A program made the translations under genes and the position numbers. Positions 1 to 37,534 of a DNA stretch of 37,534 nucleotides are shown here, in pieces. Numbering within the stretch: position 1 is the first letter of the stretch; each line of letters begins with the position of its first letter. The DNA comes from a virus. The stretch lies in the IMG/VR virus record IMGVR_UViG_3300031867_000233; one strand, 5' to 3'. A model generated the notes under the pieces. It had not been told where the DNA came from. It worked only from the letters and a program-made list of their open reading frames with translations, and searched no databases.

Positions 1-127
1 CAAAAGTAGCGTTGTGGATGTCAGCATCCTATACGGTAGAGGCGAAGTGGACACGCCTGTAAGAATAAGGATTGCCTGACTTGTCAGGTGGAAACTTAAA
101 TATCAAACTTCTTAAATAGAACCGTCA
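1..127. repeat. Terminal direct repeat, copy 1 (identical to 37408..37534); most likely the assembly overlap of a circular contig
   Basis: Read by eye: bases 1-127 (caaaagtagcgttgtggatg...aaatagaaccgtca) recur exactly at 37408-37534. The unique unit is 37,407 bp. Confidence 0.95.
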
Positions 128-238
128 GGTTCTTAGAAGCCACCTACCTTTAGGTGGGTGGTAGTTCACAATATAACTTCCATTTGTTTCTCCCATATTC
201 AAAGTGTTGGCATTCTCAAATGACTTCATGAGCTAAGT

Positions 239-543
239 CATAAGCGCTCATGAGTAACCAATATTTATCTTTGACAGAAAGGAAGTGAAAAAAGACAACT
301 TCTTTGACAAAGTTAGTTTGGTATCACGGCTTTTTTCTCATGGGATAGCATGACACTATTTAAAAATACTCATACAACAAATTTTCATGGGCTATGCTAT
401 CCATTAATAGCGTTCAAAATCAAAAAAAAGAAAGAAAAAAATATATTTATAAAAAATAACATTAAAATAAGCATCTCAATTCAGGTCTAGCTCGTGAGAG
501 TCCAACGCTGTTTCACATGATTGGTTGCTTATGAGCGCTTATG
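239..543. repeat. 24-bp inverted repeat pair (arms 239..262 and 520..543, 22/24 complementary) enclosing a 257-bp non-coding segment
   Basis: The reverse complement of cataagcgctcatgagtaaccaat (239-262) is attggttactcatgagcgcttatg. Bases 520-543 read attggttgcttatgagcgcttatg. Confidence 0.85.
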
Positions 544-578
544 GAAGATGAAAAAATAAAACAAAACGAGGTAAAAAA

Positions 579-767
579 ATGGCGAAACTTGTAAAAATGA
601 AGTACAGAACTATCGGAGGTGACTTAAAAATCAATACGTATAATGCGACAATTTCAAAAAAGATTGTGGTGGCATCTGGGATTGATCCAGAGAAAGAAAT
701 CACAGTGAAGGCAGAAAACGGAAAAATCATTATCGAGCAAAAAAATAAAGGCAAAAATTACGATTGA
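579..767 (+). CDS. Small AbrB/SpoVT-like DNA-binding protein (62 aa), putative regulator
   Basis: The ORF has an RBS (acgaggtaaaaaaATG). The sequence ...ATISKKIVVASGIDPEKEITVKAENGKIIIEQ fits the swapped-hairpin AbrB/MazE pattern. A hairpin plus T-run follows the stop. Confidence 0.45.
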   Translation: MAKLVKMKYRTIGGDLKINTYNATISKKIVVASGIDPEKEITVKAENGKIIIEQKNKGKNYD

Positions 768-2985: not shown

Positions 2986-3831
2986 ATGAGAAAAGACTTT
3001 GCGTGTATCGTAATATCACATGGCAGACCTGAGTGCAGTACGGTAAAGGTGCTTCGTGATTGTGGTTATACAGGGAAAATCTATATCGTTGTTGACGATG
3101 AGGACAAAACGCTACCAGATTATGTCGAACGGTACGGGGCTGATGTTCATGTATTCCACAAAGAAGAAAACTTCGATACTGGAGACTTGGGTGGCAGTAA
3201 GGCATGTGGAGTGTTTGCACGCAACCAATGTTTGAAGGTTGCAGAGAAAAACATGCTGACTTACTACCTAGAACTTGACGATGATCTCGAAAATCTTTCG
3301 TACAGATATAACGATAACGGGCATTTAAGAGGAATCAAGGCTAGAGAGCTTGACAGGTTGTTGGATGGAATTTGTACTTATTTTGATGAAGCTCCTGTGC
3401 AGTGTTTAGGTTTCGGAAATGCCGTTGACTATATTGGTGGTGTTCCAACGTTTGAAAGTGGAAAAGCAAACAGGGCTGTCATGAATAGCTTTTTTCTAAG
3501 AACATCAAACAAGATTCAATGGCGAAGCAGATTTTCAGACGACATAATTACGGTTGTCGATGAAGCACAAAAAGGTCATGCAGGATTCAGATTCATTCCT
3601 GTTATGAGCACATACGATGTATGGATTCCAAAGCGAAAATCAAAAAGCAGTGGCGGTAGTATTGAGGACTATAACAAGATAGGTTCGTATAAGTTGAGAT
3701 ATTATGCTGTTATGTTTCATCCTGATTGCATAAAGATAAAAGAATCAGGAGATGGGTATGACTGGACTGTAGTATCTGAGAATGCATATCCTAAAATATT
3801 AAGCGGGCGATATAAGAAAGGCAGGGCGTAA
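2986..3831 (+). CDS. GT-A fold glycosyltransferase, paralog 1 (281 aa)
   Basis: GVFARNQCLKVAEKNMLTYYLELDDD matches the GT2/GT-A 'ArN..A....lDDD' nucleotide-sugar/DxD signature. It is clearly paralogous to 4603..5463, sharing SHGR, GVFARN, L.LDDD, DYIGGV and SFFL motifs. The RBS is aaaggtggtg. Confidence 0.7.
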   Translation: MRKDFACIVISHGRPECSTVKVLRDCGYTGKIYIVVDDEDKTLPDYVERYGADVHVFHKEENFDTGDLGGSKACGVFARNQCLKVAEKNMLTYYLELDDDLENLSYRYNDNGHLRGIKARELDRLLDGICTYFDEAPVQCLGFGNAVDYIGGVPTFESGKANRAVMNSFFLRTSNKIQWRSRFSDDIITVVDEAQKGHAGFRFIPVMSTYDVWIPKRKSKSSGGSIEDYNKIGSYKLRYYAVMFHPDCIKIKESGDGYDWTVVSENAYPKILSGRYKKGRA

Positions 3832-3833
3832 AA

Positions 3834-4613
3834 ATGGAAAGCAAAAAAATGAATATCGTTTACAAGAAGGTAAAGGACTTGATCCCGTATGAGAACAATC
3901 CAAGAAACAATGACGAAGCTGTTGACTATGTAGCAAACAGCATTAAAGAGTTCGGTTTTAAGGTTCCGTGTGTTGTGAGCGGTGACGGTGTATTGATCAC
4001 AGGTCATACAAGACTTAAAGCATGTAAGAAGCTAGGCATTGATGAAGTTCCGTGCATTGTTGCTGATGATCTTACAGAAGACCAGATCAAGGCGTTCAGA
4101 ATTGCTGATAACAAGGTATCCGAATACAGCACATGGGACAATGAAAAACTTGCTGAAGAACTGAGCGAAATCATGATTGATATGGGACAGTTCGGAGATG
4201 ATCTCTTCAAAGATGATGATACGATGGACGTTGAGCTTCCTGAAGAAGAAAATCCTTACAGCCAGAAAAAGCACATTCCACAGTATGAACCGACAGGCGA
4301 TTTTGTCGATATTATGGACTTGATTGATGATGAAAAGACGAACGAGTTAATTAAGGAAATCAAAGAATCTAATGTTTCTGAAGACCAGAAGAACTTCCTT
4401 ATCAAGTCGGCTTACAGGCATTTGAAGTTCAACTATTCAAAGATAGCTGACTATTATTCCAATGCTTCTGAAGAAATGCAGATTCTTATGGAGAAGTCAG
4501 CACTTGTCATTATTGACATTGATGATGCAATTGCAAACGGATATGTGAAGCTGACAAAGGTGGTACAGGACTTAATTGCTAAAGGTGGAGGTGGTGAAGA
4601 CGATGCGGAATAA
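3834..4613 (+). CDS. ParB/Srx N-terminal-domain protein with an uncharacterised C-terminal domain (259 aa)
   Basis: IPYENNPRNND...SIKEFGFKVPCVVSGDGVLITGHTRLKACKKLGIDEVPCIV is a ParB-like nuclease/CTPase-fold N-domain. I recognised no ParA, no methyltransferase motifs and no DPPY motif. Confidence 0.75.
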   Translation: MESKKMNIVYKKVKDLIPYENNPRNNDEAVDYVANSIKEFGFKVPCVVSGDGVLITGHTRLKACKKLGIDEVPCIVADDLTEDQIKAFRIADNKVSEYSTWDNEKLAEELSEIMIDMGQFGDDLFKDDDTMDVELPEEENPYSQKKHIPQYEPTGDFVDIMDLIDDEKTNELIKEIKESNVSEDQKNFLIKSAYRHLKFNYSKIADYYSNASEEMQILMEKSALVIIDIDDAIANGYVKLTKVVQDLIAKGGGGEDDAE

Positions 4614-5463
4614 AAGCTTTGCTGTATTTATTCTTTCGCATGGCAGAGCGAACAATATCAAGACAGTTAATATGTTAAAACGTTTTCGTTATACAGGCGA
4701 TTGGTACGTTGTCATAGACAATGAGGATGATCAAGAAGAACTGTACAGAAATGAGTTTGGCGACCATATCATTCAATTTGACAAGCGAGATTATGTAAGC
4801 AGAATCGACCTTGGCGATATGGACACAGACAGAAGGGTTGGCGTGTTTGCGAGAAACTTTATTCAAGATGAAGCAGAACGTCTTGGCTACGAATGCCACC
4901 TACAGCTTGATGATGATTTTTCTGAAATCTCAATCAGATATGCAGAGAACGATAAGCTACAAAGCATGATGGTCACTGACCTTGATACTGTATTTGATGC
5001 GTGCCTTGATTTATTTTTATCAACTCCGTTGACTGCTTTATCATTTGCATTAGCAAGTGACTACATTGGCGGTGTTGCAAATGACAGGTTTCAATCAGGA
5101 ATGTTCAGAAAAACAATGGGATCGTTTTTCTTAAAAGCAAAAGACAAAGTGAAATTTGTCATGCGCATGAATGATGATATAACATCATGTGTTTTGTATG
5201 GATCACGAGGGAAGCTGTTCTATAGCATGTCGAGCTTGCAGGTGATCACTCCTGCAACTCAGCATGATGCCGGCGGAATGACTGATATCTATAAAAAGAA
5301 TGGTACATATCGAAAATCGTTCTACAGTGTCATGTGCTGTCCTTCATTCGTAAAGGTTTCAGCCATGGGAATTACGGACTTCAGGATTCATCACGAAATC
5401 AGTTGGAATAATGCCGTGCCAAAGCTTCTGTCTGAAAGGTGGTGCAAGCATGAAAGATATTGA
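4603..5463 (+). CDS. GT-A fold glycosyltransferase, paralog 2 (286 aa)
   Basis: MRNKSFAVFILSHGR...GVFARNFIQDEAERLGYECHLQLDDD...DYIGGV...GSFFL is homologous to 2986..3831. The start is set at ATG 4603, after the RBS aaaggtggaggtggtg. It overlaps the ParB-like stop codon. Confidence 0.7.
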   Translation: MRNKSFAVFILSHGRANNIKTVNMLKRFRYTGDWYVVIDNEDDQEELYRNEFGDHIIQFDKRDYVSRIDLGDMDTDRRVGVFARNFIQDEAERLGYECHLQLDDDFSEISIRYAENDKLQSMMVTDLDTVFDACLDLFLSTPLTALSFALASDYIGGVANDRFQSGMFRKTMGSFFLKAKDKVKFVMRMNDDITSCVLYGSRGKLFYSMSSLQVITPATQHDAGGMTDIYKKNGTYRKSFYSVMCCPSFVKVSAMGITDFRIHHEISWNNAVPKLLSERWCKHERY

Positions 5464-6550
5464 TTATCTGATTATCGGTGCAGGGCTGAGCGGTTCAGTA
5501 ATTGCAAGTGAAATGACGTACAAGGGCTATAAATGCGTTGTTCTTGAAAAACGTGATGCTGTAGGAGGAAATATCAGAGATAAAGAAATCAGCGGAATAA
5601 ATGTCCATCTATACGGCCCTCATATATTTAGAACTAATGACATTGAAATATGGTCTTATTTAAACCTTTTCACTAGCTTTAACAGGTTCATCAATGAACC
5701 TATTGCAAATTACAAAGGCGAAATATATAACCTGCCGTTCAACATGAACACATTCTCTAAACTGTGGGGAGTTACAACACCTGAAGAAGCAAAACGAAAG
5801 ATTGAGGAACAGAGAGTACCGTGCGAAAATCCGAGGAACCTTGAAGAATATGTTCTGAATCTTGTAGGCACTGACATTTATGAGAAGCTTATAAAAGGAT
5901 ACACAGAAAAGCAGTGGGGCAAGACATGCAAGGAACTTGACAAAAGCATTATCAGGCGTATTCCGTTACGGTTCACGTACAACAATAATTATTTCAACGC
6001 AAAGTACCAAGGCATTCCCATTGATGGTTATTCTAAGACTGTAGAAAGGCTACTAGAAGGCGCTGAAGTGGTGACAGGGTATAAATGTTCATGCTCAAGC
6101 AAAGAGTGGCTAGAAAGAGCTAAAAACGTGGTTCTGACAGGTGCCATTGACGAGTGGTACGGCTATTGTTTCGGAACGCTGGAATATCGTAGCCTGAAAT
6201 TTGAAACTGAAGAATTGCAGGAAGAAAATCACCAAGGAAATGCGGTCGTAAATTACACCGATGCTAGAGTGCCATGGACTAGGATTATTGAGCATAAGCA
6301 TTTCACAGGAGTGCAGACACCGACAACAATTATCACGAAGGAATATCCGCAGAAATGGGAGCTTGGAAAAGAGCGGTACTATCCGATTGAGGATGAAAAG
6401 AACAAAGCACTGTATCAGAAGTACAAAGAGCTTGCAGACCGTGATGGATTGATCACAGTCGGAAGGCTTGCGGAGTATAAGTATTACGATATGGAAGATA
6501 CAATCAAAAGTGCATTAAAGGTGGCGAGAGAATTATGCGAAAAACAGTAA
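5450..6550 (+). CDS. glf: UDP-galactopyranose mutase (366 aa)
   Basis: MKDIDYLIIGAGLSGSV (FAD Rossmann GxGxxG), VLEKRDAVGGN, LYGPHIFRTN, NLPFNMNTF, and the C-terminal GRLAEYKYYDMEDTI. These are hallmarks of bacterial Glf as I remember them. The start is set at ATG 5450, after the RBS gaaaggtggtg. Confidence 0.85.
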   Translation: MKDIDYLIIGAGLSGSVIASEMTYKGYKCVVLEKRDAVGGNIRDKEISGINVHLYGPHIFRTNDIEIWSYLNLFTSFNRFINEPIANYKGEIYNLPFNMNTFSKLWGVTTPEEAKRKIEEQRVPCENPRNLEEYVLNLVGTDIYEKLIKGYTEKQWGKTCKELDKSIIRRIPLRFTYNNNYFNAKYQGIPIDGYSKTVERLLEGAEVVTGYKCSCSSKEWLERAKNVVLTGAIDEWYGYCFGTLEYRSLKFETEELQEENHQGNAVVNYTDARVPWTRIIEHKHFTGVQTPTTIITKEYPQKWELGKERYYPIEDEKNKALYQKYKELADRDGLITVGRLAEYKYYDMEDTIKSALKVARELCEKQ

Positions 6551-14442: not shown

Positions 14443-17276
14443 ATGGCATTAGGTGGAACGATTAAAATCAAGGGCGAAAGTGAGTACAGGCGAGCACTGT
14501 CACAGATCAAACAGAACTTGAGGGAAGTATCTTCCGAAATGAAGATCGTCACGAGCACATATGACAAGAATGACACAAGCACTGGAGCACTGGCGGCTAA
14601 GAGTGATGTTCTGACCAAGCGACTTGAACAGCAGAAAGCGAAACTCAACCTTGTTGCAGAGCAGTACAAGAAGTATGAGGAAGCTGTCAAGAAATCAGCC
14701 GATGAGCATGAACAGCTTGGCACGAAACTGGAAAGCGCAAAGGCAGAGCTTGAGCGCATTGGAAAGACAACCGGAGAAACAAGTGCTGAGTACGAGAAAC
14801 AGAAGAAGGTTGTTGATCAGTTGCAGTCTGAGTATGATGACAGCACAAAGGCACAGGATGTCAATGCAAAGTCACTGTCCAACCTCAAGATTGAGCTAAA
14901 TGGAGCACAGGCTGATGTAAACAAGACATCTAGGGAACTTGACAACCTAGGAAAGTCACAGGAGAAGACAAACGAGGGATGGACTGTCATGAAACAGGTA
15001 CTTGCTGACCTTGCTCATGATGCAATTCAGTCTGCATTCAATGGCATTAAGCAGTTAGGAAGTGCAATCATTGATACAGGCAAGCAGTCACTTGAAGCAT
15101 ATTCAAATTATGAACAGCTTGTCGGTGGCGTTGAAACATTGTTCGGCGCAGGAGGAAAGAGCCTAGAAGAGTATGCTAAAAGCGTCGGCATGAGTGCTGA
15201 CAAAGCAAAAGGGCAGTATGAAAAGCTGATGGGCGCACAGTCAACCGTACTTAAAAATGCGAACAATGCCTACAAGACAGCAGGGCTTAGTGCGAATGAG
15301 TATATGGACACTGTAACAAGTTTCAGTGCATCCCTCATTCAGTCGCTTGGTGGAGATACGGCAAAAGCCGCCAAGTATGCCAATACAGCAATCACAGACA
15401 TGTCGGATAATGCCAACAAGATGGGTACTGATATGTCATCATTGCAGAACGCATACTCAGGATTTGCCAAAGGCAATTACACGATGTTAGACAATTTGAA
15501 ACTAGGTAAAACCCACTATTGCCTAGTATAAACCTCGCGAAAACGGTGAAACCCTTTGAAATAAGGCGATACCGTGCGAAGCCCCTTAAAGGGGAACGTG
15601 TAACGACTATCGAAAACACACAAATATGTGGAAGTGAGTAGAGTACACGCAAGTGCGTGGAAGTGCGAGGTAGCCCAAACGGGTGAAAGAGATAGTCTAA
15701 TCTCTATAGTGATATAGAGCAGTTCCTAAGAGAACGGCATGAGATTAACGACCTCATGTGAATATAAATGTATGGTGGTACAAAGGAAGAAATGCAGAGA
15801 CTTCTTAAGGATGCCGAGAAGCTACCAGGGGCCATGGGACGAAAGTTCAATCTTTCCAATTATGCCGATGTGGTCGAAGCTATCCATCTTGTGCAGGACC
15901 ATATGGGAATCACAGGAACAACGGCAAAAGAAGCAAGCACAACTATTGAAGGTTCTACAAATGCGATGAAATCGGCATGGCAGAATTTACTCACAGGCAT
16001 GGCTGACGATAACGCCAATTTCGGAGAATTGGTCGGAAATCTGGTTGACAGTGTTACAACATTCGGAAAGAATGTGATACCAAGAGTACAGCAGATCATC
16101 AAGGGAATGGCGCAGGTGGCAACACAGTTGCTACAGGAAGTGGTACCGCAGATTGTTAAAGAAATTCCTCCGCTTCTGTCAGAAACACTTCCGATGCTGA
16201 TTGATGCACTGACAGCAGTGGGACAGAGCGTTATTCAGGTATTGCCGACATTAATGCCGATTGTTTCGGATGGGATTATGCAGATCGTACAGGGAATCAT
16301 TACACTGTTGCCAGAGTTCCTTAATGCAGGATTGCAAATGCTAACATCCTTGATACAAGGCATTACGCAGGCATTGCCACAGCTAATAGACATGTTGCCA
16401 ACAATCGTACAGCAGACAGCAGATGTAATCATTCAGAATTTGCCAACAATCATACAGGCAGGCTTGCAGTTGCTTGTTGCACTGATTAACGGTATTGTGA
16501 AGGCGTTGCCACAATTAATAGCCATGCTACCAACGATCATAGGGACAATCGAAGGAATATTAATAGCTAACTTGCCACTTATCATCAAAACAGGTTTTCA
16601 GATTCTTGTAGCACTGATAAAAGGCTTGATTCAGTCACTGCCACAGCTCATTGCATGGACACCACGAGTAATCAGGGCAATCGTAAGTGTTCTGGTTCAA
16701 AACTTGCCAAAAATGCTATCTATGGGTGGACAGCTTTTAGGATCACTCATCAGTGGTATTGGTTCAAAGATTGGAAACTTGGGCAGTGCAATTGGAAATG
16801 TTGCAACTAAAATCATTGACGGCATAAAGCACATACCAGGAAAGATGATCAAATGGGGCAAAGACATGATCCAGGGCTTGATTGATGGTATCAAGGGCAT
16901 GATTGGCAAAGTCGGTGACGCAGTTGGTGGAGTAGCCAATAAAATCAAATCATTCCTTCATTTCTCAAGGCCGGACGAAGGGCCTTTGGCTGAGTATGAA
17001 AGCTGGATGCCTGACATGGTGGAAGGAATGAGCGATTCCTTAAGAAAGGCAAGTCCAGAGCTTATTGACCAGACTAAGGCACTGGCACAGGGAATGTCCG
17101 ATGCAATGACTGTGAATGGCACTATAACAGGCACTGGCGTAGGATATGGAGGTTCATCCTTCGATTCAATGGTGTCAGCATTCAAGGATGCACTATCACA
17201 GGTCAAGATCGAGATGGACGACGAAGAAATGGGCCATTTTGTTGACAAAACGGTGACGAAACTGATTTATTATTAA
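14443..17276 (+). CDS. Tape measure protein, two exons (14443..15507 + 15771..17276, 856 aa after splicing)
   Basis: Joining ...MLDNLKLG to YGGTKEEMQRLLKDAEKL restores the conserved TMP motif NLKLGYGGT. It has a coiled-coil N-terminus and hydrophobic repeats (LPQLI..LPTII). Confidence 0.85.
15508..15770 (+). ncRNA. ORF-less group I intron (IA2, T4 td-like), 263 nt
   Basis: Exon 1 ends in U and the intron ends in G. P1 pairs cuaggu (15502-07) with gccuag (15521-26), including a U-G at the splice site. P10 pairs ccacuau (15512-18) with auggugg (15772-78). P7 pairs gacuau (15605-10) with auaguc (15692-97). A P9 hairpin cucuauaGUGAuauagag is present, and the 3' hairpin caugagAUUAACGACcucaug has the same loop I recall in the T4 td intron. 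Confidence 0.88.
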
Positions 17277-25335: not shown

Positions 25336-26670
25336 TTACTTGAAGAAAACTTCTATTCCATCAGGTGAAACATGGACAGAATCAATGATATTTCGCCACA
25401 GCGTGCGCTTGTTTTCACGTGTGAGGTTCTCATATATTGATTGCCAGCCGGTATTTAGAAATTGTTGCAGATGGTCTGTATTTTTTGGCTTGATGGATTC
25501 AAGCCTTTTTATTTTGTTTTCCGTTTCGGCGTACAGACGTTCATAGGTACTTACAGGCATACGCTTCTTGATGAAGATATAATTCAGATTGTCAAGCTCT
25601 TTTCTTAGTTCTTTCAATTCCTTTTCGGTTGTGTTCTTTGTTTCAGATGTGATGCTTGATATTGTGGCTATATGGTCCTTAAGCAGGGTATCAAGGTTAG
25701 ACAGCAGATATTTTTCCGTTGACAGTTCCGCATAGTGCTTTTTGTGGTTGCATGTATGCACCGAGTGGGCATTGTTGCATCTGTAATAATAGTATCGTTT
25801 ACCGCCTTTCGGATGGCTCACTCCGACCAGCTTAGAACGGCATTCTGGGCATCTTAACAGTCCAGTGAATAAATATGTATGGCGCTGTATTCCAGTGCGT
25901 ATATTAGCCTGTAATGCGGTCTGAACGGCATTGTATGTGTCTCGTGTGATGTAAGGTTCGGCGTAATTGGAGTTTCCACGGTATGATCCTGCATAAAATT
26001 CATTCTTTAATATGTGCATATATGACATATAAGGTCGAGACAGTCCGTATTTATTGTTTACGTATTCGACTGTATGATGGACTGACTGATGCAGGAGAAA
26101 TGACGAGAAGATGTCTTTCACTATTGGCGCTTTGGATTCATCAATCACAATGCGTTTATTACCGTTTTCCGTTGCAATCCTGTAACCAAAAGGGACATTG
26201 CCAGTTATAGGCTGACCTTGTGCGACTTTGTACTCAAACACAGCCTTGATGCGTTCAGAGCCTTTTTTCAGTTCGTGTTCCGCAAGGTTGACTTTAAGGT
26301 TGAACATAAACAATCCGTTCGCAGTGGACGTGTTTATATCGTCCTCACATATGGAAATCATGGCAACGTCATTCTGTTGAAGAAGTTCAAGCATCTTGTT
26401 AGCCTCAAGGACGTTACGTGACAGGCGGTCAAGTCGTGTGAAAGCTATGGCATCAAGATCACGAAGATTTGACAGCATGAGTTGCAGTTGAGGGCGTTTC
26501 ATTGTGCTTGCTGAATAGCCTTCGTCTACATAAATGTGTTGCAGGTCATGATCGTTATCGTTGCACCATTGCGTTATTTCTTCAGTCTGGGCTTGTATTG
26601 AGTATCCATATTTCTTTTGCTCGTCAGTGGAAACACGGGCATATCCTGCCACTCGCAGTTTTTTTCTCAT
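25336..26670 (-). CDS. Large serine recombinase (integrase)
   Basis: MRKKLRVAGYARVSTDEQ... is a resolvase catalytic domain. The length is 444 aa, and a Cys-rich zinc-ribbon region (LLRCPECRSKL...YYYRCNN) is present. Confidence 0.9.
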   Translation of the reverse strand: MRKKLRVAGYARVSTDEQKKYGYSIQAQTEEITQWCNDNDHDLQHIYVDEGYSASTMKRPQLQLMLSNLRDLDAIAFTRLDRLSRNVLEANKMLELLQQNDVAMISICEDDINTSTANGLFMFNLKVNLAEHELKKGSERIKAVFEYKVAQGQPITGNVPFGYRIATENGNKRIVIDESKAPIVKDIFSSFLLHQSVHHTVEYVNNKYGLSRPYMSYMHILKNEFYAGSYRGNSNYAEPYITRDTYNAVQTALQANIRTGIQRHTYLFTGLLRCPECRSKLVGVSHPKGGKRYYYYRCNNAHSVHTCNHKKHYAELSTEKYLLSNLDTLLKDHIATISSITSETKNTTEKELKELRKELDNLNYIFIKKRMPVSTYERLYAETENKIKRLESIKPKNTDHLQQFLNTGWQSIYENLTRENKRTLWRNIIDSVHVSPDGIEVFFK

Positions 26671-37215: not shown

Positions 37216-37368
37216 ATGAAATTGAAAAATCCAGAGTACATAAATGAAGAAATGTACACAGAAAATGACATGGCTGAATTTGTAAATTGCTTGCTATCTG
37301 TAATTATTGCGGGTCTAGAGCTGTTTACGGTACTGTTTGGCATATATGCAATAATCACATCACTATAA
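37216..37368 (+). CDS. Small hypothetical membrane-anchored ORF (50 aa)
   Basis: Hand-translated as MKLKNPEYINEEMYTENDMAEFVNCLLSVIIAGLELFTVLFGIYAIITSL. The RBS is aaggtgag. Confidence 0.35.
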   Translation: MKLKNPEYINEEMYTENDMAEFVNCLLSVIIAGLELFTVLFGIYAIITSL

Positions 37369-37407
37369 ACATAAAATGGCTCTTGAAGCCATTTGAGGGT
37401 GTCAGCA

Positions 37408-37534
37408 CAAAAGTAGCGTTGTGGATGTCAGCATCCTATACGGTAGAGGCGAAGTGGACACGCCTGTAAGAATAAGGATTGCCTGACTTGTCAGGTGGAA
37501 ACTTAAATATCAAACTTCTTAAATAGAACCGTCA
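37408..37534. repeat. Terminal direct repeat, copy 2
   Basis: Exact copy of bases 1-127. Confidence 0.95.

Follow-up and report, generated by a model that had tools for sequence, protein, structure and literature searches.

We analyzed a circular phage contig from IMG/VR (IMGVR_UViG_3300031867_000233; 37,534 nucleotides); this whole stretch is referred to here as the window. Its last 127 bases (37408..37534) are an exact copy of the first 127 (1..127), leaving a unit of 37,407 bp. This exact terminal duplication is the assembly overlap of a circular contig, and the hairpin region described below straddles the join. The stop codon at 37368 and the ATG at 579 delimit a gene-free gap of 617 nt (i.e., 37369..37407 plus 1..578). 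It had been described in an earlier note as the longest such stretch of the genome, which was borne out by a wide margin, the next-longest gaps in the ORF map being ~200 to 240 nt.

Small early genes lie upstream of the gap. The last of them had no family match in Pfam or PHROGs, and the earlier observation that no late activator could be recognized was not contradicted. The first gene past the gap (579..767, + strand) encodes a 62-aa protein that is found in 39 IMG/VR phage contigs and had no match in Pfam, PHROGs, or NCBIfam. It is followed by genes for a Dp-1-type holin, a GH25 endolysin, an HNH endonuclease, two TET-associated glycosyltransferases, a ParB_N protein, UDP-galactopyranose mutase, and the small and then the large terminase subunits. 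The large terminase shares ~77% identity with its counterparts in Lactobacillus delbrueckii cos phages.

Three other features of the genome were recorded. The glycosyltransferase, ParB_N, and mutase genes form a DNA modification cluster within 2986..6550 (+ strand; between HNH endonuclease and small terminase), which suggests that the phage DNA is sugar hypermodified. A group I intron (RF00028; 15468..15719, + strand; 71 bits), the sole Rfam match in the window, sits between two ORFs (14443-15531 and 15768-17276) that had weak coiled-coil matches only in Pfam and that are preceded by two ORFs of tail-chaperone size; the tape-measure gene is probably interrupted by this self-splicing intron. 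The only recombinase, a large serine recombinase, is encoded at 25336-26670, 25 kb from the gap.

Direct reading of the sequence confirmed every hairpin that had been listed for the gap:

37374-37394: AAATGGCT/AGCCATTT
16-29: GGATG/CATCC
41-57: GGCG/CGCC
75-88: CCTGA/TCAGG
119-132: GAACC/GGTTC
140-161: CCACCTACC/GGTGGGTGG
228-252: CATGAGC/GCTCATG

The repeats reported for the 3' half were also present (direct TCTTTGACA at 268 and 301, TCATGGG at 335 and 382, and an inverted pair at 343-351 and 394-402), as was an A-rich block (12% G+C at ~411-460). The + strand of 2..169 folded with a z score of -4.21, and none of 200 shuffled sequences folded as well. The scores were -4.56 (+) versus -1.49 (-) for 1..300 and -6.75 (+) versus -2.49 (-) for 232..548, the last segment owing its score to a 24-nt clamp. 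Folding is beyond chance and strand specific (1..300 and 232..548 assessed on both strands; 2..169 on the + strand only).

General searches of the region were blank. Rfam returned nothing there for the whole window at the gathering score, and a search of 1-900 at E <= 10 gave just three noise matches, with nothing in the region. No ROOL, GOLLD, HEARO, or other Rfam family was thus found in the region on either strand, counter to the earlier proposal of a ROOL- or GOLLD-class RNA. No tRNA or tmRNA genes were found, and a blastn search of INPHARED phages with 1-578 gave no match. Promoter and terminator scans found none inside the gap, the sole scan site being a terminator-like hairpin that reads on the - strand (37394-37374).

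The composition of the gap became apparent from related phages. We retrieved the 39 IMG/VR loci with the 62-aa protein and compared the matching intergenic region in 19 of them (here, the relatives). This region is only ~180 nt long and highly conserved. It consists, in order, of a hairpin, GAGGGTGTCAGCAC, a promoter-like GTGTCA-N17-TATAAT, ~50 nt of AT-rich sequence, an invariant AGTGTTGGCATTCTC..CATGAG, a short variable spacer, and a ribosome-binding site. Three anchor blocks are common to the window and the relatives (37369-5, 186-235, and 529-578), and between them the window holds two blocks that are absent from every relative. The 617-nt stretch is a mosaic of a short native backbone and two insertions, not one functional RNA. 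Its parts are as follows:

37374..37394, + strand: native hairpin AAATGGCT-CTTGA-AGCCATTT, directly after the last early gene; kept in the 19 related phages
37395..37407, + strand: native block GAGGGTGTCAGCA(C), which ends at base 1; invariant or nearly so in the relatives
2..79, + strand: tnpB remnant, i.e., the last 25 codons (2-76) and the stop codon TGA (77-79), still in frame (tblastn)
2..169, + strand: complete TnpB omega-RNA scaffold, i.e., tnpB 3' end plus transposon right end, ending in TAGTTCAC (162-169) (homology, model, and covariation)
170..185, + strand: flank past the right end (AATATAACTTCCATTT), in the omega-RNA guide position; the phage's own insertion-site DNA
186..235, + strand: native leader block including GTGTTGGCATTCTC (204-217) and CATGAGC; 84 to 97% identity to the 19 relatives and invariant among them
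236..528: second insert, AT-rich, with TCTTTGACA twice, TCATGGG twice, the hairpin 343-351/394-402, and the A-rich block
529..578, + strand: native leader end with the ribosome-binding site GAGGT before the ATG at 579; 13/13 and 17/19 identities to one relative (L007)

The native hairpin at 37374..37394 has no U-tail on the + strand, and its variants in the relatives keep the pairing through G-U or G-C on that strand only. The 14-nt blocks 37395-1 and 204-217 could, judging from their complementarity, form an RNA helix that would include five G-U pairs. Of the four variants seen in the relatives, three preserve this pairing and one disrupts it; two-sided changes are absent, as the 3' strand does not vary. 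Following the native hairpin, the -35-like GTGTCA at 37399-37404 is part of the promoter-like site of the lineage. In a scan of one relative (L018:2848-2876), GTGTCA-N17-TATAAT gave 10/12 matches. The site is conserved in the 19 related phages (in one of them with CATAAT), directly ahead of the first late/lysis gene. No -10 box was found after GTGTCA in the present phage by the promoter scan.

The first inserted block was identified through an exact word that matched an unrelated contig (L040), in a stretch that straddles the end of a 422-aa ORF. This ORF (L040:4370-5638) matched PF01385 (OrfB_IS605; 103 bits), PF07282 (Cas12f1-like TNB domain; 38.5 bits), and NF040570 (guided_TnpB; 187.7 bits versus a cutoff of 100), and the full-length relatives of the block, by these profile matches, encode true TnpB. 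A tblastn search with the full-length L040 TnpB aligned residues 398-422 to the window at 80% identity and found no other TnpB-like sequence in it. By blastn, 2..169 was 82 to 90% identical to more than 20 full-length IMG/VR elements, always from base 2 to ~169. All 23 full-length elements end in GTTCAC and then continue into unrelated flank, as the window likewise does at base 169. Since the similarity ends after GTTCAC in every element, this terminus marks the transposon right end, past which the guide position begins. A search of the whole window for the left end of the element turned up neither its hairpin nor its motif. With the cognate tnpB absent in cis save for its last 25 codons, the block is a remnant and not an element. 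On sequence grounds, we identify 2..169 as the right end of an IS200/IS605-type, tnpB-only element.

The closest matches were the copies in Sharpea azabuensis DSM 18934 (95 to 99% identity). In that genome (G002; e.g., L247, L249, L251, L258, and L259), the omega-RNA occurs at least 11 times and contig ends carry many tnpB pieces, which marks the element as very active there; some of the copies are decayed gene-less remnants. As judged from this identity to multicopy elements, a Sharpea-like rumen or gut host is suggested for the phage. A protein-less mini-element of the same family was also seen in another phage contig (L087:1-190, - strand; IMGVR_UViG_3300021254_000105), where TTTAT and a ~60-nt left end are joined directly to an omega-RNA scaffold (97% identical to 2-128) that is cut by the contig end. 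We had considered this contig as a sibling phage with a shared insert and rejected it as such, given its different context and its protein-less element with its own left end.

The hairpins of the first block belong to a conserved RNA structure of eight helices, i.e., the five hairpins of the earlier list that fall in the block and three more. The helices are 7-12/33-38, 16-20/25-29, 40-44/54-58, 70-72/102-104, 75-79/84-88, 108-112/135-139, 118-123/128-133, and 140-148/153-161. Covariation was assessed among the 23 full-length elements, from which the window and the Sharpea copies were excluded. The structure was paired in 90.5% of cells, versus 33 to 48% with slid partners, and compensatory changes occurred in 23 of 43 pairs (105 cells, versus at most 21 cells in slid controls). 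A covariance model (R1) built from this 23-element alignment, with the window left out, scored 2-169 of the window at 200.6 bits (E value, 1.5e-51) over model positions 1-168; a search with R1 found no second copy of the scaffold in the phage. From the covariation and the R1 score, we conclude that the hairpin chain is a complete TnpB omega-RNA scaffold. The structured noncoding RNA that the earlier note had offered as one option was therefore correct insofar as the 5' hairpins are a real RNA family with covariation; as to the family, it is that of TnpB omega-RNAs, present as a gene-less remnant. A long closing helix in our first fold (16-27 with 203-214) was discarded as a feature, because it arises from the resemblance of the first scaffold hairpin to native GTGTCAGCAC, which can itself pair with 204-217.

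The relatives, which lack the segment, also point to where the element inserted. At the same point they read GTGTCA-N17-TATAAT and then AATATGACTT, i.e., ..CTTAT|AATATGACTT.., in which the 10 bases after the divide are identical to 170-179 at 9 positions and the divide itself falls inside the TATAAT box. In the window, GTTCAC is followed by AATATAACTT. The left end of the full-length elements is a hairpin (..AGAAAACCCAC..GTGGGATGAATG..) with TTTAT 8 to 12 nt before it in most copies. We infer that TTTAT is the target-adjacent motif, as read by eye from the flanks and not from empty-site pairs; the relatives carry CTTAT in place of the TTTAT of the element flanks. Together, CTTAT|AATATGACTT in the relatives and GTTCAC-AATATAACTT here suggest that the element inserted into the -10 box, behind (C/T)TTAT. 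At the left junction the sequence is ..GTGTCAGCAC-AAAA-GTAGCG.., with a CAAAA that occurs both natively (..GCACAAAACGC..) and in the tnpB copies of Sharpea (..GCGCAAAAGTAGCG..).

These data allow the history of the first block to be outlined. The element, or a protein-less derivative of it, would have inserted directly after (C/T)TTAT in the -10 box of the promoter-like site. A later deletion with its junction in the shared CAAAA would then have removed 12 bases of flank, the left end, and ~94% of tnpB. What is left is an omega-RNA scaffold in the sense orientation to the phage genes, followed by DNA of the phage itself where a guide would be. Most likely, the remnant is debris without activity that would be transcribed passively within read-through RNA, and the main consequence of the insertion would be the loss of the native promoter.

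We consider it very probable that the gap is a native backbone with a first insertion, the scar of a tnpB-only element, and a second, an unrelated AT-rich block. In this reading, the homology, structure, and boundaries of the first block and the lack of both tnpB and a left end are direct results, and the sequence of events, the target motif, and the absence of a present function make up its inferred part. Some details count against a simple scar. The scaffold is complete and differs little from active copies, which leaves some room, on sequence grounds, for a present function. To the right of the element, the flank matches the relatives over 10 nt only and is followed by a ~25-nt difference, which indicates a more complex history on that side. 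The 5' limit of 2..169 also lies within ~2 nt of the internal junction of the protein-less element in L087; this coincidence may be due to chance, given that both junctions are located in an A-run, or to selection for a whole scaffold. Remnants with other 5' limits are present in a Lachnospiraceae genome and in Sharpea. The junction word of the window (GTGTCAGCACAAAAGTAGCG) is absent from IMG/VR, and its four matches in JGI metagenomes were unrelated soil contigs. The varied 5' limits, the unique junction, and the missing left end are signs of decay rather than design.

The second insert lies between 24-nt inverted repeats (239-262 and 520-543) that are 92% complementary, both mismatches being G-U on the + strand. 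The right repeat arm partly reuses native ATGAGCGCTTA, and the position is an indel-prone spot in the relatives. None of the 39 related loci and no other retrieved locus contained the insert, two exact words from it were absent from IMG/VR and JGI metagenomes, and it had no match in INPHARED phages or in the Sharpea or Lachnospiraceae genomes. A gapped TCTTTGACA pattern search was discarded because it gave chance matches only. Among the possibilities for the insert are a clamp acting in RNA, a switch in the DNA, a small mobile element, and plain filler left by recombination.

That 239-543 is a functional unit (i.e., a long-range RNA clamp on the leader, an invertible DNA switch, a miniature inverted-repeat element, or an iteron/AT-rich origin-like block) is an unlikely alternative for this part of the gap. 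The 24-nt repeats with their G-U mismatches, the + strand z score of -6.75, the short direct repeats, and the 12% G+C block would all fit such a unit. The collections searched hold no homologue, however, and hence no conservation or covariation to support it, and the insert has no Rfam match, no promoter or terminator consensus, no convincing ORF, no second copy in the window, and no clean target-site duplication. The partly native origin of the right arm also speaks against such a unit. As for a switch, the inverted repeats are present and the phage does encode a large serine recombinase, but there is no promoter-like site inside on either strand, this sole recombinase is 25 kb away, and there is a single assembly. 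Because the relatives lack the block, it is not essential to the lineage.

Whether the whole 617 nt might instead be an RNA or a site of the phage itself was weighed against the same evidence. The earlier note had proposed a late-operon leader with RNA-based antitermination, a ROOL/GOLLD/HEARO-class RNA, or a packaging or bending site, and this would agree with the location between early and late genes, with the better-than-shuffled folding of the + strand, and with a native backbone that has a conserved hairpin and a possible 14-bp pairing (37395-1/204-217) kept in three of four variants. Yet no pair of that helix is changed on both sides, its 3' strand being invariant, and no Rfam family matched even at E <= 10. 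The transposon end accounts for the 5' block base for base, and the 19 closest relatives manage with ~180 nt and neither structured block. Neither the hairpin module nor the 3' half can be an essential late leader, packaging site, or bending site of the lineage, given that related phages do without them. For both inserted blocks, a phage-evolved origin is contradicted already, and we regard it as extremely improbable for the stretch as a whole. A poorly conserved spacer, which the earlier note had named as the contrary outcome, is what both inserted blocks amount to in related phages; the native backbone, by contrast, is conserved.

Another alternative concerns the remnant only. A working stand-alone omega-RNA would be transcribed by the phage, load a host TnpB, and cut TTTAT-flanked copies of the 16- to 20-nt flank. 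The likely targets would be sibling phages without the insert, into which repair would copy the remnant (i.e., homing in trans); alternatively, TnpB could process the phage transcript by cutting it at the early-late gene boundary. Several observations are compatible with such use: the scaffold is complete (model positions 1-168; 200.6 bits) and oriented as the phage operons are, near-identical elements are present in many copies in the likely host genus, and stand-alone omega-RNAs have been shown to act in trans (PMC10691335 and PMC10055086). Against it, the sequence in the guide position is simply local flank, from which each of the 19 known relatives departs at guide position 6 and again beyond position 10, so that they would not be cut. 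Guide targets did not exceed the control level in two element-carrying genomes (Sharpea and Lachnospiraceae), and the window holds no other copy of the guide sequence. The junction is unique to the present contig in IMG/VR and JGI metagenomes, decayed remnants with different boundaries are common, and the scan found no promoter for the RNA. A functional stand-alone omega-RNA is therefore highly unlikely in our judgment. We give slightly less credence still to the full proposal that a complete, nuclease-less phage omega-RNA borrows the host TnpB, whether to drive the remnant and linked alleles into coinfecting siblings or to cleave and process the early-late transcript. If true, it would be a case of a phage exploiting a transposon nuclease of its host.

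The scar interpretation has consequences for annotation and for the biology of this phage. Hairpin chains that separate phage modules are not necessarily regulatory RNAs of the phage, and a short tnpB tail together with a fixed GTTCAC terminus are signs by which transposon debris of this kind can be recognized. Because the element lies in the -10 box of the promoter-like site, the expression of late and lysis genes may be rewired in the present phage.

The first block has the organization known from tnpB-only IS200/IS605 elements of the IS1341 group (e.g., ISDra2 and G. stearothermophilus ISGst; PMC8612924 and PMC10055086). As in those elements, the RNA scaffold overlaps the 3' end of tnpB and reaches the right end, the omega-RNA (reRNA) has several covarying helices and a fixed short end motif followed by flank as the guide, and a short motif (here putatively TTTAT) stands ahead of the left-end hairpin in full-length copies. 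Unlike them, the remnant has no tnpB save for the last 25 codons, no left end, and no transposase. It shares with ROOL, GOLLD, and HEARO RNAs the form of a multihairpin noncoding stretch in a phage of a Gram-positive host, but it differs from them in size (168 nt versus 400 to 800 nt), in its origin from a TnpB element, and in the lack of a match on either strand. The omega-RNA family described by R1 has no entry in Rfam.

Protein-less IS200/IS605 derivatives that encode omega-RNAs have been described (PMC10055086), as have stand-alone omega-RNAs that act in trans (PMC10691335, citing Altae-Tran et al. 2021). Like these stand-alone omega-RNAs and PATE-like derivatives, the remnant is a gene-less, complete scaffold with a compatible TnpB elsewhere (i.e., in Sharpea genomes). 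PATE-like derivatives keep both ends and are movable, whereas the remnant is immobile because its left end is lost. The element in L087 is a true protein-less element of the same family as 2..169, with both ends. In contrast to the stand-alone omega-RNA cases, the remnant is on a phage and the candidate nuclease is in the host, with use in trans being only putative. Stand-alone omega-RNAs and transposon scars having both been described, the remnant is of a common, already known kind.
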